Source: a phage. Taken from it: 64,000 bases of DNA. The notes below the pieces were generated by a model that was not told the origin of the DNA, did not search any database, and worked only from the letters and a program-made list of their open reading frames with translations. Numbering within the stretch: the first letter of the stretch is position 1; every line of letters starts with the position of its first letter. The stretch is from NCBI GenBank assembly GCA_032691205.1, contig GCA_032691205.1_4541.1; one strand, given 5' to 3'. Below, in pieces: positions 8,053-44,232 of this stretch. The position numbers and the translations under genes were made by a program.

Positions 8053-8852
8053 TTTTTGTAAGTGGCGCAGGACTATCTGTGGATAGCGGTATCCCAGCTT
8101 TTAGAACAGATACTTCTTCAGGGGAGGCGTTATGGTCTTCTTATAATCTTTCTGAAGTCTGTGACATTTTCAACTTCCGTGACGGGTATCAGCAAGAACA
8201 AGGTATTCTTGATGCTATGGGCGGTTTAGATGCGGAAGGATATAACCTCTACCGTAAAACTCACGACTTTTACAATAAACGTCGCGCGGAATTAGAGAAA
8301 GTTGACCCGAATCCGGCACATCTTCAGATTGGGGAATGGTTCAAAAAACATGGTGCAGAAAAGATTATTAACATCACTACTAACGTTGATGACCTCCTTG
8401 AACGAGCAGGAGTAGATAGGGAAGAAGTGCTACATGTGCATGGTTTTCTTCCTGAAATTACTTTTCAAAGAAAAGCTGGACAACCTACAATTGTAAAAGA
8501 TGTTGGTTATCAAGCCATAGATGTAGATGACTACCATTATGTAAAACCTAATGTAATCTTCTTTGGGGAAGCTGCTCCACTTTACACAGATATGTATCAT
8601 ATTTTTGATACACTGACGGCTCAAGATATGGTTATCGTTGTAGGCTGCTCTAACCAAGTAATCAACTTCAACTGGGAACTCTTCCCTGCCCTGAATATTG
8701 GGGTTAAGATGGTTGTAGTTAACCCAGGTTTGAATTTTGTAGAACAAACTCTCTACGAAGAACGTGGAGTGCTTGTCTACCGAGAGAAAGCAGGAACAGT
8801 CTTCAGTGATGAAGGCTTTATCAAAATGGTTGAAGACCATTTAAACAAATAA
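8037..8852 (+). CDS. SIR2-family (sirtuin-like) protein lacking zinc ribbon
   Basis: Motifs GAGLSVDSGIPAFR, TTNVDDL..HVHG, IFFGE, VVGCS; no Cys pairs. Confidence 0.75.
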   Translation: MPRRVIFVSGAGLSVDSGIPAFRTDTSSGEALWSSYNLSEVCDIFNFRDGYQQEQGILDAMGGLDAEGYNLYRKTHDFYNKRRAELEKVDPNPAHLQIGEWFKKHGAEKIINITTNVDDLLERAGVDREEVLHVHGFLPEITFQRKAGQPTIVKDVGYQAIDVDDYHYVKPNVIFFGEAAPLYTDMYHIFDTLTAQDMVIVVGCSNQVINFNWELFPALNIGVKMVVVNPGLNFVEQTLYEERGVLVYREKAGTVFSDEGFIKMVEDHLNK

Positions 8853-8860
8853 ACCACTCA

Positions 8861-8883
8861 AGGGGCTTCGGCCCCTTTCTTAT
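8861..8883 (+). terminator. rho-independent terminator (weak T tract)
   Basis: aggggcttcggcccct hairpin then ttctt. Confidence 0.45.
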
Positions 8884-8895
8884 TAGGAGAACAAA

Positions 8896-9168
8896 ATGAC
8901 TGAAGAAATCCGTGATTACTACCTTGCACATTACGTTTACTACTTTGCTAATGCTACACAAAAAGGGGAAGGTAATCTTTACTTGGCAACAGGGCATGGA
9001 ACAGGTGTTAGGAAATCAAATATTGATAATGCCTTGGCTCAAGTGGCTGCTGGGCTAGAAGATAAACTTCAAATACCTGTAGTTGTAGTGATGCAAAACA
9101 TAAGTTACCTAGCAAGTTGTACTGAAACCGAATTTAACGCGTCTGAAACGCAATCTAACGAAGAATAA
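8896..9168 (+). CDS. hypothetical protein (90 aa)
   Basis: ORF track; RBS AGGAGA. Confidence 0.55.
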   Translation: MTEEIRDYYLAHYVYYFANATQKGEGNLYLATGHGTGVRKSNIDNALAQVAAGLEDKLQIPVVVVMQNISYLASCTETEFNASETQSNEE

Positions 9169-10027: not shown

Positions 10028-10190
10028 GCCATATCTCCTTTTAAAAGGCTGCACCTATTGAAGATGCAGCTTTGATAGATTATTTAGATGAGTCTAAAAT
10101 GTCTTTTACTTTTGCCGTGATAACGTCTTGATATTTGTTAATAAGATAGCCTACAACTACACCTACGATAAATGAAACCATTATTTCTCC

Positions 10191-10807: not shown

Positions 10808-11071
10808 CTAAATAACATCTTTGAAATAGTGAATCACTTCAATATTATGGTACAAAGTGCTTCGCTCTTTTGTGTACTCTGTTTTAGTAACAAACACTTT
10901 TGCAATACCGTACTTATGTGCTGGTAGGTTTGGATTGGTTTGCATAATTTCTTTCACTACACTTATAGTTTCGTGCTCGGATTCCCAATAAGTGAAGTAA
11001 CCCTCACTATCAACGATTAAAGACTCGTTTTCAAGATCTACAAAACAGAAAAATATTGACGGATGGCTCAT
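10808..11071 (-). CDS. hypothetical protein (87 aa)
   Basis: ORF track. Confidence 0.55.
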   Translation of the reverse strand: MSHPSIFFCFVDLENESLIVDSEGYFTYWESEHETISVVKEIMQTNPNLPAHKYGIAKVFVTKTEYTKERSTLYHNIEVIHYFKDVI

Positions 11072-11232
11072 TCTTTTTCTTCAACCTTCCTCAAAGCTTT
11101 TTGATCGAATATGGCGTGTTGCAATTCCCCGTTTTCATCGAACCAAGTTACTTTACAGGATTCACCATAACTTTCTATTACTGTCATTTGTTTGTTTGCA
11201 CCTTTAAGGCAAACCACATCACCTACTTGCAT
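11068..11232 (-). CDS. small protein (53 aa), not in ORF track
   Basis: Own translation MQVGDVVCLKGANKQMTVIE...; ATGA overlaps at both ends. Confidence 0.45.
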   Translation of the reverse strand: MQVGDVVCLKGANKQMTVIESYGESCKVTWFDENGELQHAIFDQKALRKVEEKE

Positions 11233-11681
11233 CATGATTGAGTTCCTTTTTGTTTTTCAATAGCTGCACGAATTTCTGCTAAAGGTTCTGCTACCAAATC
11301 TTCAACTTCTTGGATTTGTTCATTCATCACATCACGAACCATTTGAATCCGCTCTTCAAGGGAAACAGCAAGTTCATCTGCATAAGCCATATTAAGAACG
11401 TGGTAGAAATTTTCTTGTGCACTTAAAGCACCAGATAACAAATAATCCTGATCTTCCTCTGGTAAAAGCATGTGTTGCTCATATTCAGCAAAAGTGTTTT
11501 TGTTAATCTCAAGCAAAGCACCCATCATAACATCATACTGATAATCTTTATGACCAGGATTGTTTAAAATAACATCTTCAAAGATATTAAGAAGAATCTT
11601 AGTAACAAAAGCATTGTTTTCGGCACCTTCCATCTGACGGATTACCGTGATTACTTCTTTTTCTTTAACGTTTTGGCTCAT
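11232..11681 (-). CDS. hypothetical protein (149 aa)
   Basis: ORF track. Confidence 0.6.
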   Translation of the reverse strand: MSQNVKEKEVITVIRQMEGAENNAFVTKILLNIFEDVILNNPGHKDYQYDVMMGALLEINKNTFAEYEQHMLLPEEDQDYLLSGALSAQENFYHVLNMAYADELAVSLEERIQMVRDVMNEQIQEVEDLVAEPLAEIRAAIEKQKGTQS

Positions 11682-29321: not shown

Positions 29322-29355
29322 TAAGTATAACAAAAAACAGGACAAAAACAAGCCC
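29322..29355 (-). terminator. rho-independent terminator (minus strand)
   Basis: aacaggg...ccctgtt hairpin; T-rich after it on minus strand. Confidence 0.45.
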
Positions 29356-29367
29356 TGTTTATTTATC

Positions 29368-29502
29368 TTAAAACCAGGTGCCAACCGTTTCCAATAGGTC
29401 GCTGACTACTAGGACAACATTGATCAGCACATGTTCAACCATGAAGGGGATAAGCGCCAGCGTTGCTACTACGATCCCCATTGTGATGATTACCTTTCTC
29501 AT
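29368..29502 (-). CDS. small membrane peptide (44 aa), not in ORF track
   Basis: Own translation MRKVIITMGIVVATLALIPF...; ATGA overlap with upstream gene. Confidence 0.4.
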   Translation of the reverse strand: MRKVIITMGIVVATLALIPFMVEHVLINVVLVVSDLLETVGTWF

Positions 29503-29789
29503 TGTTGGCGGTTTACGTAAGCTTTACCGTTTACGGTCATCGGTATGGCCTCAAGGTCTGGATCTCCCTTAAGGTCGCGTGCAAGCTCACCGCAGCGGGT
29601 ACCCTCGAATCCGTAGTACTCTGTTGTGCCGTCCTGGAAAGTTTTAGCGGCAAGGCATAGGCGATAATTAACGCCGATCCGGTTTATTGCGTTGATATCG
29701 GTTAGCGCGATGGATTCTGGCAACTCATTAGCCAGTACAGGCGCGTTAATACCAACAACCAGGGCAACTACTGCGATCATCTTTTTCAT
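29499..29789 (-). CDS. small secreted protein with signal peptide (96 aa)
   Basis: N-terminus MKKMIAVVALVVGINAPVLA. Confidence 0.55.
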   Translation of the reverse strand: MKKMIAVVALVVGINAPVLANELPESIALTDINAINRIGVNYRLCLAAKTFQDGTTEYYGFEGTRCGELARDLKGDPDLEAIPMTVNGKAYVNRQQ

Positions 29790-29843
29790 GCGTCTATCCT
29801 CTTCCTATTGCGTTTAATGGGGTGTTACCGCCCCGCTTATGGT

Positions 29844-30080
29844 TTATTGATTGATGTTATGATGAAAGTTATTTTCTTCAATAGCTTTTAAAATAAAAGC
29901 CGTGATCGCTTTCGTGTCTACTTGTTCGAACGTATCAGAATAAGCCCAATAATAATCATCCCCTACTTTCGGCGGGTAAACCTGGACAAGGAGATCGCCA
30001 CCTGGTTGATCTATAAGCTCAACATGCAAGCCGGATGATTCAGCGGTTTTAACGGCGTTTAATACTGTTGCAATACTCAT
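29844..30080 (-). CDS. hypothetical protein (78 aa)
   Basis: ORF track; GC hairpin in 5' leader. Confidence 0.55.
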   Translation of the reverse strand: MSIATVLNAVKTAESSGLHVELIDQPGGDLLVQVYPPKVGDDYYWAYSDTFEQVDTKAITAFILKAIEENNFHHNINQ

Positions 30081-30124
30081 AATCTTTTCCTTTCTGATGT
30101 GGGGCGTTGCCGCCCCTTTGTTGA

Positions 30125-30424
30125 TTAGATCGCTGTTTCCAGTAGTTCGGCTAACGTCTTACCGCCTGATAGTTGGTCTAACGTTTGCTCTTCTGGCAAG
30201 AAATTAGCTGATATTAAACCAACTTGATTTCCTTTGTGCCAGTTAGCCTGGCGGATGATTCCATCCTTTAAAGATTTTACCGCCATTGTGCAACCGTCGC
30301 CAAATGATTCATTTTTATGGTCCATCACTTCATAAGCGCCCAGTTTGCTGCTGTTAGGCACCATTAACGCGAACACATCACCAACAACCAGTTTTTCTAC
30401 GGTAACAATAGCGATAGTTTCCAT
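30125..30424 (-). CDS. hypothetical protein (99 aa)
   Basis: ORF track; RBS GAGGAAAG. Confidence 0.55.
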   Translation of the reverse strand: METIAIVTVEKLVVGDVFALMVPNSSKLGAYEVMDHKNESFGDGCTMAVKSLKDGIIRQANWHKGNQVGLISANFLPEEQTLDQLSGGKTLAELLETAI

Positions 30425-30442
30425 TTTACTTTCCTCATTATC

Positions 30443-30498
30443 GGCGGCACCATTGCCGCCCTACGTGGTAAATATTAGCACACTGCCGATCTGTGTCA
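30443..30498 (-). promoter_or_regulatory. PeSL-like cassette: TTGACA N17 TAATAT promoter + stem-loop ggcggcaccattgccgcc
   Basis: Hairpin 30443-30460; -35 at 30493-30498. Confidence 0.6.
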
Positions 30499-30505
30499 AT
30501 ACTTT

Positions 30506-30892
30506 TTATTCAATATAAATCAAATTATCTTCACCAATGTAAGCCGACACGTTCGGCATAAACTTAGCTGCATTTGTTAGGCGGTTGGCTGTGTTAGTGG
30601 TGTATATTTCAGGGCGATCCCAAAAGCCTACGCCGTGACTGTTACGGGTAAAATGTAAATCATTCCCGATCTGGTTGGCTGTTGCGCCGTCGCTCATTGC
30701 CTCAGAGATAGCGGCAAGATTAGCATTAATAAAGGCTGTTACATCCTGGGCGATCCGTTCGTCCGCGCTAGGAGAAAAATCATAATCAGTCATGTCATCT
30801 ATAAAATTACCTTCATGATCCCTTGCGGATTCAGCAAAAATAAAGGCTTCTTTATAACCGTTGATGATTTCAATAATGATTTCTGTTTTCAT
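30506..30892 (-). CDS. hypothetical protein (128 aa)
   Basis: ORF track. Confidence 0.6.
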   Translation of the reverse strand: MKTEIIIEIINGYKEAFIFAESARDHEGNFIDDMTDYDFSPSADERIAQDVTAFINANLAAISEAMSDGATANQIGNDLHFTRNSHGVGFWDRPEIYTTNTANRLTNAAKFMPNVSAYIGEDNLIYIE

Positions 30893-31104
30893 GCTGTACG
30901 CTCGACAATAATAATAGTTTGCGGGATCTCATTTTCTACTACTAACAAGGCTTTTTTCTGCGTAATAGATATTTTAACACGTTGTAACGTGGCGGTAAAG
31001 TCTTTCATCTCATTATGCGCGGATTTAGTGCAATGCCAGATCTCAGGCTTACCTATTTGCAAGCCGCGTAAAAATTCTGTTTTACCTGTCTTATTCGTGA
31101 TCAT
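30889..31104 (-). CDS. hypothetical protein (71 aa)
   Basis: Track ORF (TTG start) trimmed to ATG 31104 after AAGGTG. Confidence 0.5.
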   Translation of the reverse strand: MITNKTGKTEFLRGLQIGKPEIWHCTKSAHNEMKDFTATLQRVKISITQKKALLVVENEIPQTIIIVERTA

Positions 31105-31114
31105 TTGATTCACC

Positions 31115-31219
31115 TTAACCAATACCGTGGGAAGATAGGATCATATTAGCCATAGTTGCAACCAATCCAACCGATAACGCCAGGCCAACTATTACAACCG
31201 TGAAAATTTTCTCTAACAT
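31115..31219 (-). CDS. small hydrophobic peptide (34 aa), not in ORF track
   Basis: Own translation MLEKIFTVVIVGLALSVGLVATMANMILSSHGIG. Confidence 0.35.
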   Translation of the reverse strand: MLEKIFTVVIVGLALSVGLVATMANMILSSHGIG

Positions 31220-31237
31220 GATTCTACCCTCATTAAT

Positions 31238-31299
31238 GGGCGTTGCCTTATTGCCCCGCCCTACGAAATACATTCTATCAGATAACAAATTATCGTCAA
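31238..31299 (-). promoter_or_regulatory. PeSL-like cassette (variant hairpin gggcgttgcc..gccccgccc)
   Basis: -35 cgtcaa at 31294-31299. Confidence 0.5.
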
Positions 31300-31442
31300 G
31301 ATTTATTTTTTACTTCCCAAACGGAAAATTCGCTGCCTGTTGGGATCATCTTTTTAATCTTGTTTGCTGCCGCTACCAGGTCAACGGCTTGCACTGTAAT
31401 AATATAACCAATTGTCGAGGCTGTTGCGTTGAAAGTTTTCAT
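31296..31442 (-). CDS. small protein (48 aa), not in ORF track
   Basis: Own translation MKTFNATASTIGYIITVQAVDL...; stop lies within the downstream -35. Confidence 0.4.
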   Translation of the reverse strand: MKTFNATASTIGYIITVQAVDLVAAANKIKKMIPTGSEFSVWEVKNKS

Positions 31443-31486
31443 TATATTATCCTTTAATACAGGCGGGATTAATCCCGCCTTATTAA

Positions 31487-31657
31487 TTACTCTTCATCGT
31501 CGCCGTTATAGTATTCAATGCCGTTTTCATCGGTTACAGTGATGTTAACGCCACCGATAGCAACACGATCACGGGCAAACGTCATAGCTTCATTTAAATC
31601 TTCAGACCAAAAAATATTGTGACCTTTGCGCGATACATAAAACATAGTCGGGATCAT
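31487..31657 (-). CDS. hypothetical protein (56 aa)
   Basis: Track ORF trimmed to ATG 31657 because the cassette hairpin lies inside the track ORF. Confidence 0.45.
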   Translation of the reverse strand: MIPTMFYVSRKGHNIFWSEDLNEAMTFARDRVAIGGVNITVTDENGIEYYNGDDEE

Positions 31658-31680
31658 GATTTGTTTCTCTTCTGTTGTGA

Positions 31681-31741
31681 GCGGTGGACCATTCCGCCGC
31701 CCTATGTGGTAAACTTTACTACGTTGTTTGCGTGCTGTCAA
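31681..31741 (-). promoter_or_regulatory. PeSL-like cassette (hairpin gcggtggaccattccgccgc)
   Basis: -35 tgtcaa at 31736-31741. Confidence 0.55.
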
Positions 31742-31742
31742 A

Positions 31743-32078
31743 TTATTTTTTAATGTTTTGCCCTACAAAATTAATCATTTCCTTAAGCTGTCTCTCTGTC
31801 ATGATCGTACCTGGTAACTCTTCTTTAATTTCTTCCGGTAAATAAATATTACCGCGCCAGGTTAACAAACAACCGTTTTGATCTTCGCAGATAGAATAGG
31901 AAAACATCCACTCGCAATCATTTTCAAGCTCCCAAAAACACAAAAAGTCTTCTTTCCCTAAGTTTTCAACGGTTAAACATAATCCGCGACGTGCTGCATA
32001 ATTAGTTAGGCTTTTTGTGATTTTCATGATTTTTCTCTCTTCTTGTGAGCGGCACCATTGCCGCCCTACAAGATACAT
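31743..32078 (-). CDS. hypothetical protein (111 aa)
   Basis: ORF track. Confidence 0.55.
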   Translation of the reverse strand: MYLVGRQWCRSQEERKIMKITKSLTNYAARRGLCLTVENLGKEDFLCFWELENDCEWMFSYSICEDQNGCLLTWRGNIYLPEEIKEELPGTIMTERQLKEMINFVGQNIKK

Positions 32079-32104
32079 ATTACCAGACTAAGCCGACTTG
32101 TCAA
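32049..32104 (-). promoter_or_regulatory. PeSL-like cassette (hairpin gcggcaccattgccgcc)
   Basis: -35 tgtcaa at 32099-32104. Confidence 0.55.
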
Positions 32105-32105
32105 A

Positions 32106-32216
32106 CTATTTTTTCTTTTTCTTTGCTTCCAACCGTCTAAGGTTACGGCTTGACTTATTGCGCAAGGCGCTTAGATCGTCGTACCCTTTCCATGCTTGCA
32201 TATCTTTCGGATTCAT
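32106..32216 (-). CDS. small basic protein (36 aa), not in ORF track
   Basis: Own translation MNPKDMQAWKGYDDLSALRNKSSRNLRRLEAKKKKK; RBS AAGGGG. Confidence 0.35.
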   Translation of the reverse strand: MNPKDMQAWKGYDDLSALRNKSSRNLRRLEAKKKKK

Positions 32217-32225
32217 GTTATCCCC

Positions 32226-32387
32226 TTACTTGTTAGCCGGATTATATGCCAGGACCGCGCCGCTTGCTTTCACGCTTTCCGCTTCATAGTTGCGCAGATC
32301 GTTTTCTGTAAGGTTGAGCGCGATCACTTCCTCGATCTCAACGTCAGCGGCAAGGGCGATCTCTTTGATAATGTCTGTTGTTTTCAT
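32226..32387 (-). CDS. small protein (53 aa), not in ORF track
   Basis: Own translation MKTTDIIKEIALAADVEIEEVIALNL... Confidence 0.4.
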   Translation of the reverse strand: MKTTDIIKEIALAADVEIEEVIALNLTENDLRNYEAESVKASGAVLAYNPANK

Positions 32388-32397
32388 AGTACGCACC

Positions 32398-32517
32398 TTA
32401 TAAGATGATTGATAAGATAGTGATAACGAAAGCGATTATACTGATGGCAAATGTCATCTTTTTACCTTCGGATACTGCCGGATTCTCTACCGTGTATTCT
32501 ACTGTGTACTTGCTCAT
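32398..32517 (-). CDS. small membrane peptide (39 aa), not in ORF track
   Basis: Own translation MSKYTVEYTVENPAVSEGKKMTFAISIIAFVITILSIIL. Confidence 0.4.
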   Translation of the reverse strand: MSKYTVEYTVENPAVSEGKKMTFAISIIAFVITILSIIL

Positions 32518-32537
32518 CGTGTAATCCTCTCGTTTGC

Positions 32538-32597
32538 TTTGGGAACTATTCCCGCCGCCCTATGAATTAAATATACACTATCTCAAAATGATTGCAA
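32538..32597 (-). promoter_or_regulatory. PeSL-like cassette (hairpin gggaactattccc; -35 TTGCAA)
   Basis: -35 at 32592-32597. Confidence 0.5.
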
Positions 32598-32613
32598 GCC
32601 TTTTTCTAAATTT

Positions 32614-32928
32614 TTATGCAGTAAACAAACCATCATTTACAACGGCGGCGATGATCTCCCGCGCCATTGATTCAGGGAAAGGGGCGCTATAGTCCTGGCT
32701 TGTCTCATCGGTATCAGTGATCCAATGATAAGCTAACGAGTAAAAGCCTTTACTAACTGTTTTCAGTGAGATGACGATCACTCGGTCAAGCTTATTGGTG
32801 AATGTTGCCGTTAATGTGTTACCCTCCTGCGTCATGTTGGACAAGTAAGCGGGATCATTAATCAGGGAAAACATTAGCACGGTGTTAGCTTTACTCATGA
32901 TTGCATCCTCAAAGGGGCGCGGCACCAT
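32614..32928 (-). CDS. hypothetical protein (104 aa)
   Basis: ORF track. Confidence 0.55.
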   Translation of the reverse strand: MVPRPFEDAIMSKANTVLMFSLINDPAYLSNMTQEGNTLTATFTNKLDRVIVISLKTVSKGFYSLAYHWITDTDETSQDYSAPFPESMAREIIAAVVNDGLFTA

Positions 32929-32974
32929 TGCCGCCCTACACGATAACTATAACACAATGTAAAACAGGATCAAC
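32917..32974 (-). promoter_or_regulatory. PeSL-like cassette (hairpin gcggcaccattgccgcc; -35 TTGATC)
   Basis: Hairpin about 32919-32935. Confidence 0.45.
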
Positions 32975-33176
32975 CTTTATTTTTCCACGGTGTCAGCTTG
33001 TTAATCATTGGTGATAAATAGCGTTTACCAACGTAAAACAGCACGCCAACTGATGCAACGGCGGCGATCTCATGCATAGCCGACGGGAAACGGGTATCAT
33101 AATAAGATCCAATAATAGCAATAGCGGCAACGGCTGCAACGTCGATAATGATTTTTTCTTGTTTTGCGGTGATCAT
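32970..33176 (-). CDS. small membrane protein (68 aa)
   Basis: Track ORF trimmed to ATG 33176; two hydrophobic segments. Confidence 0.45.
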   Translation of the reverse strand: MITAKQEKIIIDVAAVAAIAIIGSYYDTRFPSAMHEIAAVASVGVLFYVGKRYLSPMINKLTPWKNKG

Positions 33177-33196
33177 AATATTTACCTTTTTGTATG

Positions 33197-33256
33197 GTGG
33201 GGGAACTATTCCCCGCCTGATGTAATACAGTTTAACAGGTCCGGTTATGGTGTCAA
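33197..33256 (-). promoter_or_regulatory. PeSL-like cassette (hairpin gggggaactattcccc)
   Basis: -35 tgtcaa at 33251-33256. Confidence 0.55.
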
Positions 33257-33262
33257 CCACTT

Positions 33263-33448
33263 TTAAAGATATTTTATACTGATAACGTTTTCCGGTTTAA
33301 CCTTGTTGTGATGTGCATCAACATAGATCAAACCATCGTCAGAAAAGCCCAGGATCACGCCCTGCGCAATAAAACCGTATTCGTCACGGTAACGCACGGC
33401 TATTTTTAACGTTGCGTTGTAGGCTGTTTTAAGCTCGCTTAAAGTCAT
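33263..33448 (-). CDS. hypothetical protein (61 aa)
   Basis: ORF track. Confidence 0.5.
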   Translation of the reverse strand: MTLSELKTAYNATLKIAVRYRDEYGFIAQGVILGFSDDGLIYVDAHHNKVKPENVISIKYL

Positions 33449-33465
33449 CTTTGTTTATCCTCTAC

Positions 33466-33496
33466 ATGTAAAAAGAAAGGGCGCTTGGTGCGCCCC
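33466..33496 (-). terminator. rho-independent terminator (minus strand)
   Basis: gggcgcttggtgcgccc hairpin; U tract on minus strand. Confidence 0.6.
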
Positions 33497-33504
33497 TTAT
33501 TATG

Positions 33505-33651
33505 TTAATCCTCTAAATCCATCCAATTATATTTGTCACTCTTCCCGCGCTTTGTTTTATTGCGCTTGTCGCCTTTGCGGATCACTTCCTCGTTCCAGGC
33601 CTTGCGGATCTTGGAAGATTGAATTTTTTCTGCGCGATTAGATGTATTCAT
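33505..33651 (-). CDS. small basic protein (48 aa), not in ORF track
   Basis: Own translation MNTSNRAEKIQSSKIRKAWNEEVIRKGDKRNKTKRGK... Confidence 0.4.
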   Translation of the reverse strand: MNTSNRAEKIQSSKIRKAWNEEVIRKGDKRNKTKRGKSDKYNWMDLED

Positions 33652-33671
33652 TTTGTTTCCTCTTCATATGA

Positions 33672-33724
33672 GCGGCACCATTGCCGCTATATTGTTAATT
33701 TAAGCTGTTTTGTAAAATTGTCAA
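33672..33724 (-). promoter_or_regulatory. PeSL-like cassette (hairpin gcggcaccattgccgc)
   Basis: -35 tgtcaa at 33719-33724. Confidence 0.55.
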
Positions 33725-33730
33725 GGTTTA

Positions 33731-34084
33731 TCATTCATAAGAGCAAGCAAGGATCACGCCTGCAATATAAAGCCAATAATTTTCCCTTTCTCGTTGGATT
33801 TTATCATCGCTGCTATTCTCTTTAATGTATCCCCAGGATGTTAACAAGCGATCAATTTCCCAATATTCGAAAGCGATATTGATATCTGATGGCAAACCTT
33901 GTAACCATGATGCAAGTGCTTTAACAATACTATAATTAAAACGTGATTGGTTATCAGGGTACCAGTACTCGGAATTAAAACGGCGCATCAATTCCGCGAT
34001 CTTCTCTTTTTCGGTTGTAATACCGTAATCATTAAAATCGATAGCGGCAAGTATGTACTCTTTAATTGCATTTTGTGCTTTCAT
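33731..34084 (-). CDS. hypothetical protein (117 aa)
   Basis: ORF track. Confidence 0.55.
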   Translation of the reverse strand: MKAQNAIKEYILAAIDFNDYGITTEKEKIAELMRRFNSEYWYPDNQSRFNYSIVKALASWLQGLPSDINIAFEYWEIDRLLTSWGYIKENSSDDKIQRERENYWLYIAGVILACSYE

Positions 34085-34103
34085 GGTCTTTCTCTCTTTT
34101 TGA

Positions 34104-34160
34104 GCGGGAACTATTCCCGCCCTACGTGTAACAGTTTACTAAAAATTAAATCGGTGTCAA
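34104..34160 (-). promoter_or_regulatory. PeSL-like cassette (hairpin gcgggaactattcccgc)
   Basis: -35 tgtcaa at 34155-34160. Confidence 0.6.
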
Positions 34161-34163
34161 GCT

Positions 34164-34385
34164 TTATTTTGTTACTACCATTTGGTACCCTGTTTCAATG
34201 TTAGTAAATACTGTTATTCCGTCCTGGCGTTCACTCATTAGCATACAAGGCGCTAACATCCTTTCTACTGCCTTGCACTCATTGTAAACGGCGGTTATGT
34301 CTCCTGCGGCCTTGTCTTCTGTGGTGAATGTATCGTTTACGTAAACCTGACCAGCGACAACGGCGACAATAGCGAAAGTGATCAT
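34164..34385 (-). CDS. hypothetical protein (73 aa)
   Basis: ORF track; begins ATGATCACTTT like the next ORF. Confidence 0.5.
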   Translation of the reverse strand: MITFAIVAVVAGQVYVNDTFTTEDKAAGDITAVYNECKAVERMLAPCMLMSERQDGITVFTNIETGYQMVVTK

Positions 34386-34459
34386 GATGTTTCCTTGTTA
34401 GTAGTGGTTTCTCTTCTCTATAGCGCCCATTATAAGGCGCTATAACGAAAAGTCAACGA

Positions 34460-34627
34460 TTATTTTTTAAGGCTTAAAGTACCTAACTTGTCAGCATGAC
34501 GCAGACCAGGGAAGATCCATTTTCCTGATTCATCTTTTACAGGGGCTTTAAGCGTAGCGCCCAGGTTGGCGGCGTTAACTTTACGGGCAACGTTGCGAGC
34601 GGCTTCACGGGTAGTAAAAGTGATCAT
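34460..34627 (-). CDS. small protein (55 aa), not in ORF track
   Basis: Own translation MITFTTREAARNVARKVNAANLGATLKAPVK... Confidence 0.4.
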   Translation of the reverse strand: MITFTTREAARNVARKVNAANLGATLKAPVKDESGKWIFPGLRHADKLGTLSLKK

Positions 34628-34651
34628 GATGTTTTCCTCTTCTCTTTGTTA

Positions 34652-34713
34652 GGCGGTGGACCATTCCGCCGCCTTGATGTAATACAGTTTACTTTATTTT
34701 TGCAGTATTGCAA
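34652..34713 (-). promoter_or_regulatory. PeSL-like cassette (hairpin ggcggtggaccattccgccgcc; -35 TTGCAA)
   Basis: -35 at 34708-34713. Confidence 0.55.
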
Positions 34714-34718
34714 GCGTT

Positions 34719-34931
34719 TTATGAAATAATCGTCAAAGTAAAATTGTAATCACCTGATTGGTACAATACTTTATCACCGAACGTTCCAACACGTTTAACA
34801 TTGCAATATATACCCATAACACTTTTTACATCTTTGATATTCTTCACGCCTGTAATATCTTTATTAAAATGATCGTGATCAGAAAATAAAACTTGACTTG
34901 CATTTTTTAACAGTGTGCGGATATTAGCCAT
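34719..34931 (-). CDS. hypothetical protein (70 aa)
   Basis: ORF track. Confidence 0.5.
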   Translation of the reverse strand: MANIRTLLKNASQVLFSDHDHFNKDITGVKNIKDVKSVMGIYCNVKRVGTFGDKVLYQSGDYNFTLTIIS

Positions 34932-34956
34932 CGTGATAATCTCTCTTCTGTTGTGA

Positions 34957-35012
34957 GCGGCACTATTGCCGCCCTACGTAATACAGTTTACTCTTTTTCT
35001 TTCCCGTGTCAA
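34957..35012 (-). promoter_or_regulatory. PeSL-like cassette (hairpin gcggcactattgccgcc)
   Basis: -35 tgtcaa at 35007-35012. Confidence 0.6.
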
Positions 35013-35021
35013 CAATCTTTT

Positions 35022-35249
35022 TCAGATTAATTCATCCAGGCATAACAGGCGATCAACGTTGAGATCGGTCAGGCTGATGGTTGGCACCTGGTAGGATTCG
35101 ATGTACTCGACGCTTGCATATTCCCCAAAATTAGCAATAGCCCACTTATTCAAGATCTCACATACATCATTAATCTTTTTGTTTGTTACAACTGCAATAA
35201 CCTGGGAAGTGCCAACGGTGCCGGATACGCGAACAATATTGATAGCCAT
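35022..35249 (-). CDS. hypothetical protein (75 aa)
   Basis: ORF track. Confidence 0.5.
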   Translation of the reverse strand: MAINIVRVSGTVGTSQVIAVVTNKKINDVCEILNKWAIANFGEYASVEYIESYQVPTISLTDLNVDRLLCLDELI

Positions 35250-35270
35250 AATCTTTAATCTCTCTGTTGT

Positions 35271-35330
35271 TGGCGGGAAACCACTTCCCGCCCTATGTGA
35301 TACATCTTACACTAATTTTAAACGTTGTCA
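35271..35330 (-). promoter_or_regulatory. PeSL-like cassette (hairpin ggcgggaaaccacttcccgcc)
   Basis: -35 tgtcaa at 35325-35330. Confidence 0.6.
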
Positions 35331-35340
35331 ACTGTTTTTA

Positions 35341-35580
35341 TTACATTCCAACCATCGCGGCGCGGATCGCAGTTTTACTATACTTAAAGCCGTCTGGCGT
35401 TGTAGTGATTCCATCCTGTTTCAAACGGTAGCACATTAAATCAGCCGCCTGATCTTTATTACCGCACTCATTGATCAATCCCAATGCAAACCGATACAAT
35501 CCCTCATCGTTATTAATCCACAGGCTTACATTCCAATGAGTTTTGTTTTTGTGACCGTTGTACATTTTAGATTTAGCCAT
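35341..35580 (-). CDS. hypothetical protein (79 aa)
   Basis: ORF track. Confidence 0.5.
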   Translation of the reverse strand: MAKSKMYNGHKNKTHWNVSLWINNDEGLYRFALGLINECGNKDQAADLMCYRLKQDGITTTPDGFKYSKTAIRAAMVGM

Positions 35581-35604
35581 GATTTTTCTCTCTTTTTCAG
35601 TGAG

Positions 35605-35663
35605 GCGGGAAGTGTTCCCGCTCTCTATGTAATACAGTTTACTCTTTTTATTCGTGCTGTCAA
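35605..35663 (-). promoter_or_regulatory. PeSL-like cassette (hairpin gcgggaagtgttcccgc)
   Basis: -35 tgtcaa at 35658-35663. Confidence 0.6.
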
Positions 35664-35669
35664 TGCTTT

Positions 35670-36023
35670 TTATAAATCTTTTTTACGTTTTACATCGCTT
35701 GCATGACTGTATACAGCGATCCCATTATCACGACAAAAACGGGTAAGGTATGATCCGCGTGAAAACTCTTTCCCTTCCAGGTCAACAACCTTGCTAAATT
35801 CTTCCAGGGCAACGGTATCAAAATGATCACCATAACCATATTGAAACGGCACGTTAACAACTTCAATCAATTTACCGCCGATCTCAACGTCCACGCTTAA
35901 AGAAAAATATGTGTTACCGTAGGACTGTTGAAACCAGCGACGGGCGCTAATGTGAACGGCTTCAATCTCACCAATTTTAAATTGAGTGTTACCCAGGATC
36001 GCAACGTTGATATTTTTAGCCAT
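35670..36023 (-). CDS. hypothetical protein (117 aa)
   Basis: ORF track. Confidence 0.55.
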   Translation of the reverse strand: MAKNINVAILGNTQFKIGEIEAVHISARRWFQQSYGNTYFSLSVDVEIGGKLIEVVNVPFQYGYGDHFDTVALEEFSKVVDLEGKEFSRGSYLTRFCRDNGIAVYSHASDVKRKKDL

Positions 36024-36048
36024 GATTTTTTCTCTCTTTTTGGTTAGT

Positions 36049-36100
36049 GGGAAGTGTTCCCGATAAAAGTTATTATGCTTATACTATCGTTTTTTGTCAA
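36049..36100 (-). promoter_or_regulatory. PeSL-like cassette (short hairpin gggaagtgttccc)
   Basis: -35 tgtcaa at 36095-36100. Confidence 0.5.
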
Positions 36101-36119
36101 TAGTATAAGACTAAAACTT

Positions 36120-36299
36120 TTAACGATAATCGTCGTAGGCTTTATTAACCTGGCGAATATAACATTCGAAAGCGAGATCAATAGAATCATATTCCCGCAC
36201 ATAATCCCCGTAAGAAACTACATACACACCTTTTTGATCCTCAAACGTCATGATGATAGAATCCAGGCCGATGATTTCAGTTTTAGCGATGATAGTCAT
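36120..36299 (-). CDS. small protein (59 aa), not in ORF track
   Basis: Own translation MTIIAKTEIIGLDSIIMTFEDQKGVYVVSYG... Confidence 0.45.
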   Translation of the reverse strand: MTIIAKTEIIGLDSIIMTFEDQKGVYVVSYGDYVREYDSIDLAFECYIRQVNKAYDDYR

Positions 36300-36320
36300 A
36301 ATAATAACCTTTTTATTGTT

Positions 36321-36377
36321 GGCGGCACCATTGCCGCCCTACGTGATAAACTATACCAGAATTTTAAACAGTGTCAA
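36321..36377 (-). promoter_or_regulatory. PeSL-like cassette (hairpin ggcggcaccattgccgcc)
   Basis: -35 tgtcaa at 36372-36377; -10 TATAGT. Confidence 0.6.
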
Positions 36378-36387
36378 ACGTTTTTTC

Positions 36388-36633
36388 TTAGTTTGCGAAA
36401 TATGGCGCGGCGGCTGATGCCGTTAATCTCCAAGTGATTTGGCTATCGATCAAGTATTCTTCATTCTTGATCCGCACGGTATCAATCGAGAAGTTACTGA
36501 AAGGCTTGCTCTTGATTTTACGAACAACCGTTACACGACGGTTATTTTTCATCTCTTTTAACTGAATCCAGGCGTAACCTTTTTCATTGACAAATATTTC
36601 ATTGTGATTGGTGATAGATGATAAGTGTTTCAT
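36388..36633 (-). CDS. hypothetical protein (81 aa)
   Basis: ORF track. Confidence 0.5.
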   Translation of the reverse strand: MKHLSSITNHNEIFVNEKGYAWIQLKEMKNNRRVTVVRKIKSKPFSNFSIDTVRIKNEEYLIDSQITWRLTASAAAPYFAN

Positions 36634-36654
36634 GATTTGTTTCTCTTCTGTTTT

Positions 36655-36714
36655 GAGCGGTGGACCATTCCGCCGCCCTATGTGTTACATCTTACTACTT
36701 TTTTAAACATTGTC
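36655..36714 (-). promoter_or_regulatory. PeSL-like cassette (hairpin gcggtggaccattccgccgc)
   Basis: -35 tgtcaa at 36709-36714. Confidence 0.6.
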
Positions 36715-36724
36715 AAGGATATTT

Positions 36725-37006
36725 TTAACTATATGATCCACATCGTTCGCAGTAGTGATCATCGTCGTCATCTGCTACCTGGCTGATAAAATGATCTACC
36801 TTTGCTTTCAAATTATTATAATTGCTTTCTACTTCCTGTAGTCGTCGTTGGTAGTATTCCAGGGCTTGCACATAGGCCATTTGTTCGGTTTTAGCTTGCA
36901 CAGCTAAATTCATGCCGCGCGTTTCATCGTATAACCAATAACCATCATTACATTCACTAATAGATAGTGTAGGGCTTAGTTTTTCGTGACGGATAACCTT
37001 GCTCAT
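36725..37006 (-). CDS. hypothetical protein (93 aa)
   Basis: ORF track; C-terminal CERCGS. Confidence 0.55.
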   Translation of the reverse strand: MSKVIRHEKLSPTLSISECNDGYWLYDETRGMNLAVQAKTEQMAYVQALEYYQRRLQEVESNYNNLKAKVDHFISQVADDDDDHYCERCGSYS

Positions 37007-37016
37007 GGTGTGCCCC

Positions 37017-37124
37017 TTACTTCAAAATGATTGTTGTGATAACTGCTACGGTGATCCAAAATGGAACGGCTAGAATGATAGCGTTAATCGTTCCAACCGT
37101 CAAACTATTTCCTTTATTAATCAT
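37017..37124 (-). CDS. small membrane peptide (35 aa), not in ORF track
   Basis: Own translation MINKGNSLTVGTINAIILAVPFWITVAVITTIILK; RBS AAGAGG. Confidence 0.4.
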   Translation of the reverse strand: MINKGNSLTVGTINAIILAVPFWITVAVITTIILK

Positions 37125-37153
37125 TGTAAGCCTCTTGCATAATTTCACTATGA

Positions 37154-37210
37154 GCGGCACCATTGCCGCCCTACGTGGTAAATATTATGCCAGTGGCGGC
37201 GATATGTCAA
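37154..37210 (-). promoter_or_regulatory. PeSL-like cassette (hairpin gcggcaccattgccgcc)
   Basis: -35 tgtcaa at 37205-37210 overlaps stop of upstream gene. Confidence 0.6.
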
Positions 37211-37773
37211 AGACTATTTTCAAAGTTTTCTAGTGCGATCCTTTTTTCTTCCTCTGTCGGCTGATAATCAGGAAAAGCATCAACACACAACAACGGCGGG
37301 ATCTCTTCGTACTCTTCCTCTTCCGTTGTCTCCTCGTCTTCCTCCTGGGCTATGGCTGCAATTTTGGCTAATTTTCTTTCAGCTTGAATCAATTTACCAT
37401 CAAGTACGTTTTTTGCCATGTTGTAAGCGGTCCAGGTGATGCGCTTACTTTCCAGGGCCTGATCGAGCGCCGCTATCTTGCTGGGGTATTCATCCAGGAC
37501 ACGAAAAGCCGGATCAACTTTGTACAAAGGATTATCTTTCGCGCCGTCGCTCGCATCTTCCGCACTGGATAAATCAGCGTTACCATTTGCCAGCCAGCCA
37601 GGGCGCACATAACGCGCTTTTACGTTGCCGTTACTACGTGCTAATCTGTTACCTATTTGCTCACCGCTATATCCCGTGGATTCATCGATAAGATGATCGG
37701 GAATGATGCGCGGATCATCTGCTTCATGTTTTACCCAAGACTGGATCACATATTCGCGGCCCATATTAACCAC
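37207..37773 (-). CDS. hypothetical protein (188 aa), acidic C-terminus
   Basis: ORF track. Confidence 0.6.
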   Translation of the reverse strand: MVNMGREYVIQSWVKHEADDPRIIPDHLIDESTGYSGEQIGNRLARSNGNVKARYVRPGWLANGNADLSSAEDASDGAKDNPLYKVDPAFRVLDEYPSKIAALDQALESKRITWTAYNMAKNVLDGKLIQAERKLAKIAAIAQEEDEETTEEEEYEEIPPLLCVDAFPDYQPTEEEKRIALENFENSL

Positions 37774-43700: not shown

Positions 43701-44086
43701 TAGAACGTTTCTCCTTTTAAAATAATTACTGTAAACTTTGCAGTTTTTTCACTCTTAATATTCTTGATTAATAAGTATTCTCCTCCAGGGGCATCTTTAT
43801 ATTGTTTAATAGCTACTATTTCATTTTTGCAAGTGGCTATAATCGAATAAAAAGGACGTTCCGTGTTATCTTCTTTTCCTGTATATGCCTCAACATCTTT
43901 ACACTCTTCTAGAACACCATTTCCAGGTGTATAGTAAAATTTGTTGCCTGTGATCACAACATCTTTACCAATATCCGTTTTAACTGCTACAAATTTTTGA
44001 GCGTAAGTGGTGAAGCTTACGGTAGCCAGCAATGTGGCTAAGATTAATTTTTTCATAAACTTCCCTCCTATTCCCACAACATACAA
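43700..44086 (-). CDS. secreted/periplasmic protein with signal peptide (128 aa)
   Basis: N-terminus MKKLILATLLATVSFTTYA; RBS AGGAGGGAAG. Confidence 0.6.
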   Translation of the reverse strand: MYVVGIGGKFMKKLILATLLATVSFTTYAQKFVAVKTDIGKDVVITGNKFYYTPGNGVLEECKDVEAYTGKEDNTERPFYSIIATCKNEIVAIKQYKDAPGGEYLLIKNIKSEKTAKFTVIILKGETF

Positions 44087-44232
44087 ATCGCAGCGACAAA
44101 CATATTAGCAATAGCCGCACCAAGAACTATAAACATCGCCAGTTCTGAACAATATTCACCAACCAGAGGGGATACTATTGCACAAAGTAGTCCCAATGTC
44201 AAACACAAATTGATGATGAAGTTTAAAATCAT
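44068..44232 (-). CDS. possible small membrane peptide (54 aa), not in ORF track
   Basis: Own translation MILNFIINLCLTLGLLCAIVSPLVGEY...; overlaps next gene by 19 nt. Confidence 0.3.
   Translation of the reverse strand: MILNFIINLCLTLGLLCAIVSPLVGEYCSELAMFIVLGAAIANMFVAAICMLWE

Follow-up and report, generated by a model that had tools for sequence, protein, structure and literature searches.

The window, a stretch of 64,000 nucleotides, belongs to a Phapecoctavirus-like (phAPEC8-like) coliphage with about 95% identity to phage Mt1B1_P17. Its variable early-gene region holds ten micro-ORFs (m01 to m10), all on the minus strand, and each was found at the coordinates claimed in an earlier note, with an ATG start, a length that is a multiple of three and a terminal stop codon. 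The equivalent region of phage rV5 was described as containing 88 ORFs, mainly small, and sigma-70-type promoters (PMC3606486). We compared the micro-ORFs with 18 related genomes and rV5 (19 in all); the relatives are close kin, with about 85-95% nucleotide identity, and several ORFs thus have few substitutions.

The micro-ORFs had been taken to fill gaps between cassettes; they turned out to be cassette cargo like their larger neighbours. Six come first, or stand alone, behind a leader made of a promoter, a GC-rich 5' hairpin and a Shine-Dalgarno (SD) sequence, and four are co-cistronic, at junctions of 0-10 nt or behind an intra-operon hairpin spacer. The region has 15 such stereotyped leaders. 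Hairpin energies range from -7.8 to -15.8 kcal/mol, and the SD stays unpaired. A promoter scan gave 18 intergenic minus-strand matches scoring 9/12 or better and 42 sites in total, against 21.8±5.5 expected; the promoters (near-consensus sigma-70) and terminators reported here are consensus matches only. No known RNA families were found in the region.

The gene m10 (37017-37124, 35 aa) is the first of a bicistron with 36725-37006 and follows a leader (37125-37210) with the promoter TTGACA-17-TAATAT, the 5' hairpin GGGCGGCAATGGTGCCGCTC (-14.7 kcal/mol) and an unpaired SD (-5.8 kcal/mol). Fourteen relatives have it, at 31-35 aa and with a conserved NSL.VGTINAII..VP.W motif (dN/dS 0.23), and it is a 96-nt CDS in the annotation of Mt1B1_P17 and ESCO13; it had no PHROG family match, and its exact sequence was absent from public protein collections. 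Three solo cassettes come next. The acidic m09 (36120-36299, 59 aa, net charge -5) has a leader (36300-36377) with TTGACA-16-TATAGT, a hairpin of -14.6 kcal/mol (z -3.2) and an SD, and it is intact in 10 relatives and in rV5 as ORF174 at 76% (dN/dS 0.15, phrog_9374). The basic m08 (34460-34627, 55 aa, net +7) has a leader (34628-34713) with TTGCAA...TAAACT, a hairpin of -15.8 kcal/mol (z -3.6) and an SD. It shows 91-100% identity across 17 relatives from two genera, whereas its neighbours show 65-80% between genera (dN/dS 0.10, variable sites by codon position 5/5/28, phrog_13689); only 20 representative clusters were found for it in 1.84 billion proteins, all of 53-85 aa and stand-alone, and its AlphaFold model (pLDDT 72) gave no fold match. 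The basic m07 (33505-33651, 48 aa, net +6), a member of the T7 gene 1.1 family, lies between a leader (33652-33724) with TTGACA-16-TAAATT, a hairpin of -11.4 kcal/mol and an SD, and a terminator-like hairpin with T-run directly after it (33476-33498, minus strand); it is present in 17 relatives (dN/dS 0.23).

The genes m06, m05 and m04 form a tricistron of micro-genes only, behind a leader (32518-32597) with TTGCAA-16-TATATT, a weak hairpin of -7.8 kcal/mol (z -0.7) and an SD. The first, m06 (32398-32517, 39 aa), was found in 17 relatives; across genera its N-terminal V.Y...NPA..EG.K motif is conserved and its span divergent, and it matches phrog_10979 'membrane protein', the label that it also carries in RefSeq relatives. 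It is followed by the acidic m05 (32226-32387, 53 aa, net -5; SD -6.2 kcal/mol, dN/dS 0.39, phrog_35944) and the very basic m04 (32106-32216, 36 aa, net +8; SD -8.3 kcal/mol, phrog_31652, dN/dS 0.05 from just 5 variable sites), each intact in 10 relatives. An eleventh small gene (31487-31657, minus strand, 56 aa), masked in the ORF track by a TTG-extended ORF of 84 aa, starts at the ATG at 31657 after a promoter/hairpin leader, matches phrog_20874 over 56/56 residues and is a 171-nt CDS in the annotation of relatives. The gene m03 (31296-31442, 48 aa; SD -5.4 kcal/mol, phrog_29854), itself the second of a cassette, ends with a stop codon inside the next promoter's -35 hexamer; it occurs in 5/18 relatives at 45 or 48 aa and as a remnant in ZCKP1, with a dN/dS of 0.03 from 9 variable sites (1/0/8 by codon position). 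The first gene of a three-gene cassette, m02 (31115-31219, 34 aa), has a leader (31220-31299) with TTGACG-16-TAGAAT, a hairpin of -14.9 kcal/mol (z -3.9) and an SD (-6.1 kcal/mol). It is intact in 17/18 relatives and occurs in 229 phage records, among them rV5-likes (59% identity), with an invariant C-terminal ATMxNMILSSxGIG (dN/dS 0.23, phrog_14631 over 34/34 residues); it is not annotated in Mt1B1_P17 and tuntematon.

A four-gene operon ends with m01 (29368-29502, 44 aa) and is closed by a terminator-like hairpin with T-run (29335-29360, minus strand) that is kept after m01 in several relatives. The ATG of m01 overlaps the stop codon of its upstream neighbour (29499-29789, minus strand; ATGA), the one true case of the stop/start overlaps that had been reported for the micro-ORFs; none of the other nine has one, and at the m06/m05/m04 and m02/next-gene junctions there are spacers of 8-10 nt in which the stop codon forms part of the SD (TAAGGTG, TAAGGGG). 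m01 is intact (ATG, 44 aa) in 10 relatives and has a counterpart in rV5 ORF170 at 61% identity (dN/dS 0.25, phrog_16005 over 44/44 residues). The upstream gene encodes a 96-aa protein (phrog_9845) with a Sec-type signal peptide, MKKMIAVVALVVG(I/L)NAPV(M/L)A|(N/K)E, and two cysteines (C45 and C66), all conserved in 23 homologues; a structural model of it (pLDDT 48) was unusable. The two genes co-occur: all 11 genomes with either have both, and both are missing in the 8 others. Their junction is 0-5 nt without an SD in 12 genomes, and translation of m01 would be coupled, through termination and reinitiation, to that of the secreted protein.

The good SD sequences claimed for the micro-ORFs are present in all but m01: the other nine pair with the 16S 3' end at -3.8 to -8.3 kcal/mol, compared to a mean of -2.3 kcal/mol for 160 other ATGs of the region. 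Three of the micro-ORFs (31115-31219, 32226-32387 and 37017-37124) are the ATG-initiated portions of longer mechanical ORFs whose first codon is a TTG, GTG or ATG further upstream, within the promoter/leader; the starts in the earlier note are the ones that have the SD and are kept by relatives. That the micro-ORFs are unannotated holds only against the 60-aa cut-off of the ORF track, as related phages list them as hypothetical proteins. In the RefSeq record of Mt1B1_P17 nine of the ten are annotated with the same start codons (one as 'membrane protein'), rV5 lists three (ORF170, ORF173 and ORF174), and nine have full-length PHROG family matches and nine an exact sequence in public protein collections. 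Annotation is patchy (m01, m02 and m10 are absent from many records).

The reading frames could be products of chance in DNA that serves as non-coding spacer or regulatory sequence, conserved merely because the genomes are so closely related, and ORFs this short do occur randomly. Counting ATG-ORFs of 34 aa or more, the seven oversized gaps (282-535 nt) have 11 on the coding strand and 5 on the other; 1000 dinucleotide shuffles gave 2.8±1.5, with a maximum of 8 and none that reached 11. Once the micro-ORFs are placed, ordinary regulatory spacers remain, i.e. promoter/leader stretches of 74-96 nt (the usual inter-cassette gap is 79-91 nt), shorter hairpin/terminator spacers and one terminator-plus-next-promoter stretch of 168 nt after m01. 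The frames are kept without gaps in the 18 relatives and rV5, in two phage genera and, in the case of three micro-genes, in a second subfamily too. All homologues but two (one with a shifted start, the other a deletion remnant) retain the ATG, and the stops lie within a few codons despite an amino-acid divergence of up to 40-60% across genera and subfamilies. Variable sites cluster at third codon positions (98/65/203, p=3e-18, pooled; individually below 0.05 in nine of the ten, the exception being m05 with p=0.079), and dN/dS is 0.03-0.43 in the claimed frame and mostly 0.5-8 in the two others. This frame-specificity indicates purifying selection on the amino-acid sequence. An alternative-frame ORF that overlaps m09 (36044-36202), taken as negative control, carries stop codons in four relatives. 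Together with the SDs, these data leave chance frames a next to negligible probability. Another explanation holds that the first-position genes m10, m02 and m06 are regulatory leader ORFs, whose translation opens or couples the downstream genes and whose peptide has no function. All three are the first cistron after a 5' hairpin with the next gene within 8-10 nt, and the gene downstream of m10 varies between relatives. Nevertheless, their dN/dS (0.23-0.43) points to selection on the peptides, the motifs given above (in m06 NPA..EG.K) are invariant across genera or subfamilies, m02 survives the loss of its downstream gene in arall and SD2, and four micro-genes cannot act as leaders because they are solo or last cistrons. 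We therefore consider a mere leader role very improbable.

The reading of the micro-ORFs as real genes is thus supported, judged from sequence: they have an SD or a translationally coupled start, their frames are conserved and they are under purifying selection. For none of the relatives did a literature search yield ribosome-profiling, transcript-mapping or proteomics data. Our best explanation is that the ten are genuine, conserved small protein-coding genes of the early region and that 31487-31657 belongs with them (probability about 0.87, a joint figure for the explanation as a whole). They are real, ordinary and already known. They would be transcribed by the host RNA polymerase right after infection and, except for m01, translated from their own SD. 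The products are probably heterogeneous, four being membrane peptides, three very basic (m04, m07 and m08, probable binders of nucleic acid or of nucleoprotein machines) and two acidic (m05 and m09). The claim that several are single-TM peptides was borne out by hydropathy: four of the ten are strongly hydrophobic and of single-pass type, with Kyte-Doolittle 19-residue maxima of 2.59 (m01, which has two adjacent hydrophobic stretches), 2.46 (m02), 2.71 (m06, at residues 21-39, suggesting a tail anchor) and 2.58 (m10). The usual threshold for a membrane span is 1.6, and values of 2.46-2.71 occur only in these four among the region's 29 genes. They are predicted to be inner-membrane microproteins with a probably cytoplasmic N-terminus (insertion and topology both predicted from hydropathy), and the polar or proline motifs that they conserve suggest contacts with particular proteins instead of generic hydrophobicity.

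The presence or absence of micro-genes is mosaic among the relatives, which fits a dispensable accessory role, and the likeliest collective role would be host-directed (takeover, counter-defence or exclusion). A part in superinfection exclusion or host takeover, as proposed in the earlier note, is plausible from the sequences. The narrower proposal that the membrane peptides are exclusion factors, which from the inner membrane keep incoming related phages from delivering their DNA, likens them to T4 Imm, which binds the tape-measure channel. The peptides appear to be early-expressed from sigma-70-type promoters and are predicted to be in the inner membrane, their motifs are kept mainly within phages of common virion architecture, and in its coupling to a secreted, periplasmic-type protein m01 resembles the T4 proteins Imm and Spackle with their localisation to membrane plus periplasm (PMC7677548; bioRxiv 10.64898/2026.03.06.709160). 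However, searches of Pfam, PHROGs, NCBIfam and PDB showed no similarity to Imm, Spackle or exclusion families, one single role is unlikely for four different peptides and small membrane proteins are known in many other roles, so that we regard this proposal as doubtful. It is still less probable that the peptides are toxin- or holin-like and depolarise or permeabilise the inner membrane for host shut-off or lysis timing. They are very hydrophobic and, at 34-44 aa, of the size class of type I toxins, and the paired stretches of m01 would suit this activity, but there was no match to Hok, Ldr, TisB, Ibs, ShoB or holin families, and the region showed no antisense RNA family. Moreover, the genes lie in the early region, away from any lysis cassette, the conserved motifs suggest specific contacts, and with promoters that look strong and constitutive an early depolariser would be costly for the phage.

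Comparison of all micro-ORFs with known exclusion proteins, toxins and holins revealed no homology, and searches of Pfam, NCBIfam and PDB gave no relatives except for m07, which matches PF08200 (Phage_1_1) at 49.8 bits (cut-off 21). The sole functional lead is thus the family assignment, made from sequence similarity, of a protein that is not among the membrane peptides. m07 shows 52% identity to g004 of the T7-like Yersinia phage fPS-59, a gene that sits between those for RNA polymerase and ligase, the canonical locus of T7 gene 1.1.

The ten micro-ORFs that had been picked out from the sequence alone (m01, 29368-29502; m02, 31115-31219; m03, 31296-31442; m04, 32106-32216; m05, 32226-32387; m06, 32398-32517; m07, 33505-33651; m08, 34460-34627; m09, 36120-36299; m10, 37017-37124) are all present, start with an ATG and are open through to the stop, and they lie on the minus strand, which codes the entire 29.2-37.3 kb. 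The good Shine-Dalgarno (SD) sequences ascribed to them were recovered for nine, with a predicted pairing of -3.8 to -8.3 kcal/mol against a mean of -2.3 kcal/mol for 160 other ATGs of the region; m01 lacks an SD, but its start codon overlaps with the stop codon of the gene upstream. With an ORF track restricted to at least 60 aa, the gaps that hold the micro-ORFs measure 282-535 nt versus 79-91 nt for ordinary intergenic spaces, and with the micro-ORFs placed, only spacers of the usual promoter/leader or terminator kind are left of the large gaps. In these seven gaps there are 11 coding-strand ATG-ORFs of at least 34 aa, versus 2.8±1.5 (maximum 8) in 1000 dinucleotide-preserving shuffles. The surrounding 8.5 kb matched 281 phage records, the best being from Phapecoctavirus (Stephanstirmvirinae), e.g. 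Mt1B1_P17 with ~95% identity over 93% of the query, and the more distant ones from Justusliebigvirus and the rV5-like Vequintavirus.

Conservation of the reading frames was evident from the homologous region of 18 relatives (two genera) and of rV5, where all ten micro-ORFs have ungapped homologues with lengths within a few codons. The position of the ATG is identical in all homologues, except for a shifted start of m05 in phiWec179 and a deletion remnant of m03 in ZCKP1. The dN/dS ratio (Nei-Gojobori) was 0.03-0.43 in the claimed frame and mostly 0.5-8 in the other two frames, and the variable sites of the ten micro-ORFs were distributed over the codon positions as 98/65/203 (binomial p=3e-18). 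The third-position bias was individually significant in nine of the ten, and the evidence is thinnest for m04 (5 variable sites), m03 (9 variable sites) and the exception m05 (p=0.079). A 52-aa alternative-frame ORF (36044-36202), overlapping m09 and a promoter, was discarded: it carries stops in four relatives in which the m09 frame stays open. An RNA family as the cause of the conservation was searched for with Rfam over 28.5-38 kb and none reached the threshold. That the micro-ORFs are chance ORFs or purely regulatory is essentially excluded, and we conclude that all ten are protein-coding genes under purifying selection.

The description of these genes as unannotated did not hold. The RefSeq record of Mt1B1_P17 contains nine of the ten with identical starts (gp004, 010, 013, 015, 016, 020, 024, 029 and 031, with m06 named 'membrane protein') and lacks only m02. 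Identities of 76-100%, shared start codons and synteny identify these as the same genes, and the same applies to ORF170, ORF173 and ORF174 of the Vequintavirus rV5, which correspond to m01, m02 and m09 (59-76% identity, with starts and synteny shared). Such counterparts are annotated as hypothetical or 'membrane' proteins in Phapecoctavirus, Justusliebigvirus and Vequintavirus genomes. Whole-profile matches to PHROG families of unknown function were obtained for nine micro-ORFs (E 1e-15 to 2e-39) and no PHROG family was found for m10. Likewise, nine occur with their exact sequence in public protein collections, where they go by names such as 'hypothetical protein'; the 35-aa variant of m10 is absent verbatim from these collections and shares 91% identity with the forms of phiWec179 and phAPEC8. 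The micro-ORFs are largely already known, as ordinary and already catalogued members of the small early phage ORFans. In the early region of the closest relative 10 of the 33 annotated CDS (about a third) are shorter than 60 aa, so that a cut-off of 60 aa conceals a substantial portion of the early programme that is under selection.

Public annotation of the smallest genes is inconsistent: m01, m02 and m10 frequently go unrecorded (many of the annotated records sampled from tblastn hits lack a feature over them), and antisense ORF calls and spurious enzyme names occur. For instance, Klebsiella phage ZCKP1 has a 204-nt CDS at 8766-8969 (+) opposite its m10 homologue at 8865-8951 (-), probably a wrong-strand call; the antisense ORF is shared with the window (37027-37233, 68 aa), and its apparent hydrophobicity stems from its being complementary to a gene for a membrane peptide. 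Homologues of 34719-34931 (70-aa product) are labelled 'phosphoribosylpyrophosphate synthetase', with no Pfam match, and in phage SKA64 the homologue of m07 bears the name 'TDP-4-keto-6-deoxy-D-glucose transaminase' because of a 16-bit NCBIfam match (cut-off 375 bits); both are probable mis-annotations. Several records with 85-100% identity to these coliphage genes name a different host ('Campylobacter phage' (MG0656xx series), 'Acinetobacter phage vB_AbaM_ABPW7', 'Pseudomonas phage PsgM04F' and 'Serratia phage KKP_3264'), and these labels look doubtful, unless the isolation hosts were unusual.

A scan for promoters yielded 42 promoter-like sites, versus 21.8±5.5 expected, and the strong matches (9-11 of 12) are minus-strand TTGACA-N16/17-TAnnnT elements in intergenic spacers. 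By pattern search we identified 15 stereotyped minus-strand units between 30437 and 38738, in which a leader consisting of a promoter, a GC hairpin and a purine-rich SD precedes the ATG. The hairpin sequence is GGGCGGCAATGGTGCCGC or a self-complementary variant such as GGCGGGAAGTGGTTTCCCGCC or GGCGGCGGAATGGTCCACCGCC, and no T-run follows it. In the six leaders ahead of micro-ORFs the 5' hairpins have folding energies of -7.8 to -15.8 kcal/mol and the SD is unpaired; single-sequence folds were used, since a consensus fold of 17 leader hairpins was unusable because the stems differ in length and misalign. The earlier note placed the micro-ORFs in gaps between cassettes. Their operon positions make them cassette cargo instead: m10 is the first gene of a bicistron, m09 and m08 are solo cassettes, m07 is the sole gene in its promoter-hairpin cassette and is followed by a terminator-like hairpin, m06-m05-m04 form a tricistron consisting only of micro-genes, m03 is the second gene of its cassette, m02 is first in a three-gene unit and m01 is last in a four-gene unit, with a terminator after it. 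Besides coding potential and selection, the analysis demonstrates an SD or coupling and a position behind host-type promoter/hairpin leaders. Host RNA polymerase would transcribe the micro-genes immediate-early, and accessory host-directed roles may be envisaged, which fits with the mosaic presence and absence of the genes.

An ATG within the leader hairpin (GGCGGCAATGGTGCCGC) at 37163, 32928 and 32078 (-) opens spurious N-terminal extensions downstream, which lengthen m10 to 48 aa and the genes that end at 32614 and 31743 to 104 aa and 111 aa; public records contain the long form (e.g. a 315-nt CDS) of the former of these two genes and the short 285-nt form of the latter. Extended versions of m02 (from 31273) and m10 (from 37163) were rejected because they would begin within the -10 element or the leader hairpin. 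We also found an eleventh small gene at 31487-31657 (-), encoding 56 aa with a 56/56 match to phrog_20874, which had not been counted before because the ORF track listed it as an ORF of 84 aa that opens at a TTG and extends across the promoter and hairpin. Further micro-ORF candidates are located at 10080-10181, 11068-11235 and 44068-44232 (-), with SD pairing of -9.3, -5.6 and -9.2 kcal/mol, respectively; the first has a hydrophobic N-terminus, and the last (54 aa, Kyte-Doolittle 19-residue maximum (KD19) 2.45) resembles a membrane peptide with two spans. Downstream of m10 the window carries genes 36725-37006 and 36388-36633. Of the relatives fetched, phiWec179 has both of these genes at 99-100%, ECO340P2 and PD06 have the first (81%), and in most Phapecoctavirus genomes a 363-nt 'membrane protein' gene is found there instead. 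The stretch 36388-37124 is thus a case of local mosaicism at cassette boundaries.

Among the micro-gene products, that of m07 (48 aa, net charge +6) was assigned to Pfam PF08200 Phage_1_1 (T7 gene 1.1 protein), with 49.8 bits against a cut-off of 21 and residues 5-44 aligned to model positions 2-40 of 40. The peptide is 52% identical to g004 of the T7-like Yersinia phage fPS-59, a gene that sits between those for RNA polymerase and ligase. It resembles T7-type gene 1.1 proteins in size and strong basic charge, with KG.K.NKTKR...K..W invariant with fPS-59 g004. Unlike T7 gene 1.1, m07 is not located downstream of a phage RNA polymerase gene; it forms a solo cassette in a myovirus early region, with its own sigma-70-type promoter and unrelated small genes around it. 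Synteny is outside the Pfam definition, and membership of PF08200 therefore stands; the function of gp1.1 is unknown (PMC7064336). The product of m08 is 91-100% identical in 17 relatives from both genera, with neighbours that are 65-80% identical between genera, and a profile search of 1.84 billion representatives gave a narrow family of 20 stand-alone relatives (53-85 aa) and no larger protein carrying the domain. An AlphaFold2 model from a 21-sequence alignment (pLDDT 72) was compared with the PDB by Foldseek and gave nothing below E=1.8, and a fold-based function for m08 was dropped. The products of m04 and m08 are strongly basic and those of m05 and m09 acidic, and PDB sequence searches with m05, m07, m08 and m09 gave no match. 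Pfam detected only DUF7249 and DUF1033 in 18 neighbouring genes, so that no functional lead comes from context.

Several micro-ORFs indeed encode hydrophobic peptides of the single-span type, as the earlier note had observed: m01, m02, m06 and m10 have a KD19 >2.4, and they are the only ones to do so among the 29 genes of the region. Membrane-type products are encoded by four of the ten micro-genes versus one of the 19 larger genes (Fisher p=0.036). Conservation of the four peptides is sequence-specific: m02 keeps ATMxNMILSSxGIG as far as rV5, m10 keeps NSL.VGTINAII..VP.W, m06 keeps an N-terminal V.Y...NPA..EG.K with a diverging span, and m01 keeps a proline within the span and LVVSDL. All four products would insert into the inner membrane. 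Bacterial small membrane-protein regulators (e.g. MgrB and AcrZ) and type I toxins bind larger membrane proteins or perturb the membrane, and the window peptides are like these in being single-span peptides of ~30-50 aa; unlike these, they are phage-encoded, predicted to be early-expressed and without a family match. NCBIfam gave sub-threshold matches only for the ten peptides (the best being YkgR, E=0.42, 10 bits vs a cut-off of 40).

No type I toxin or holin profile of NCBIfam or Pfam matched the micro-ORF peptides, no antisense RNA family of Rfam reached the threshold in 28.5-38 kb, and a lysis-cassette context was not seen, the neighbours being early genes without assigned function; we regard a toxin-like action of the membrane peptides as improbable. 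The earlier guess that small membrane peptides of this kind serve in superinfection exclusion or host takeover is plausible, and the sigma-70-type promoters, the hydropathy and the signal peptide of the 96-aa gene directly upstream of m01 (g29789, 29499-29789 (-)), all of them predicted, are consistent with early expression and envelope localisation. Specific support for it was not obtained, however: homology to exclusion proteins (T4 Imm/Spackle) was found in none of the Pfam, PHROG, NCBIfam and PDB-sequence searches for the four membrane peptides and g29789, and that the membrane peptides are exclusion factors seems doubtful to us.

Another finding was the association of m01 with g29789, in whose product a Sec-type signal peptide and two cysteines are conserved. 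Co-occurrence of the two genes is perfect in 19 genomes (both present in 11, including rV5, and both absent in 8), and the pair is kept across two subfamilies. In 12 of 12 genomes the ATG of m01 lies 0-5 nt from the stop of g29789 without an SD, and this junction implies that m01 is probably translationally coupled to g29789. Exclusion proteins of a contractile-tailed phage include the periplasmic Spackle and the inner-membrane protein Imm of T4, both small and made early in infection (PMC7677548; bioRxiv 10.64898/2026.03.06.709160). The m01 peptide (44 aa, membrane) and g29789 (signal peptide) share the size class and predicted localisation of these proteins and differ from them in having no detectable sequence similarity; a structure model of g29789 was unusable (pLDDT 48), and a PDB sequence-profile search gave chance-level matches only. 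The likeness may serve as a lead, not as a result.

We propose, with a probability of roughly 0.2, that m01 and g29789 form a conserved envelope module of an inner-membrane peptide and a periplasmic protein, and that the four membrane microproteins each have a specific target. The two proteins of the module would be made in a fixed ratio via termination-reinitiation coupling and would act at the cell envelope; the module is retained from Phapecoctavirus to the rV5-like Vequintavirus. It might, for example, act in superinfection exclusion, taking the role of T4 Spackle and Imm without homology to them, or alternatively modulate a host envelope or defence protein. The invariant polar motifs of each membrane microprotein would define which membrane protein, of the host or of the phage, it targets.

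No transcriptomics, proteomics or Ribo-seq was found in the literature for phAPEC8-like or rV5-like phages, a 'proteomics' paper on the closest relatives being in silico only. The micro-ORFs bring neither a new type of element nor a function. The micro-genes are candidates for host takeover, counter-defence or exclusion in therapy and biocontrol phages, and in practice they are of use as a compact and well-supported set of small proteins to take into tagging, toxicity and exclusion assays. Of the by-products, the most useful are the myovirus homologue of gene 1.1 (m07) and the pair of a secreted protein and a membrane peptide (g29789 and m01).

The arrangement of the cassettes has precedents. 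The rV5 genome paper described 88 mainly small ORFs in the equivalent region, and also sigma-70-type promoters (PMC3606486). The T4-type phages RB49 and phi1 have hyperplastic regions in which ORFans are preceded by a strong sigma-70-like early promoter combined with a stem-loop (PeSL; Arbiol et al. 2010; PMC2839356), and in the definition of these mobile regulatory cassettes the stem-loop serves for termination or attenuation and inter-cassette recombination yields mini-circles. Like PeSL regions, the window has many copies of one arrangement, in which a sigma-70-like promoter with a GC-rich stem-loop next to it is followed by an SD and a small ORFan, and the presence or absence of genes varies between the relatives of the phage. 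The window differs in its lineage, which is Stephanstirmvirinae-like and not T4-type (Tevenvirinae-like), and in having the hairpin uniformly downstream of the -10 element, and therefore probably where the transcript begins. The cassettes of the window thus have an architecture analogous to that of PeSL and do not belong to the described family.
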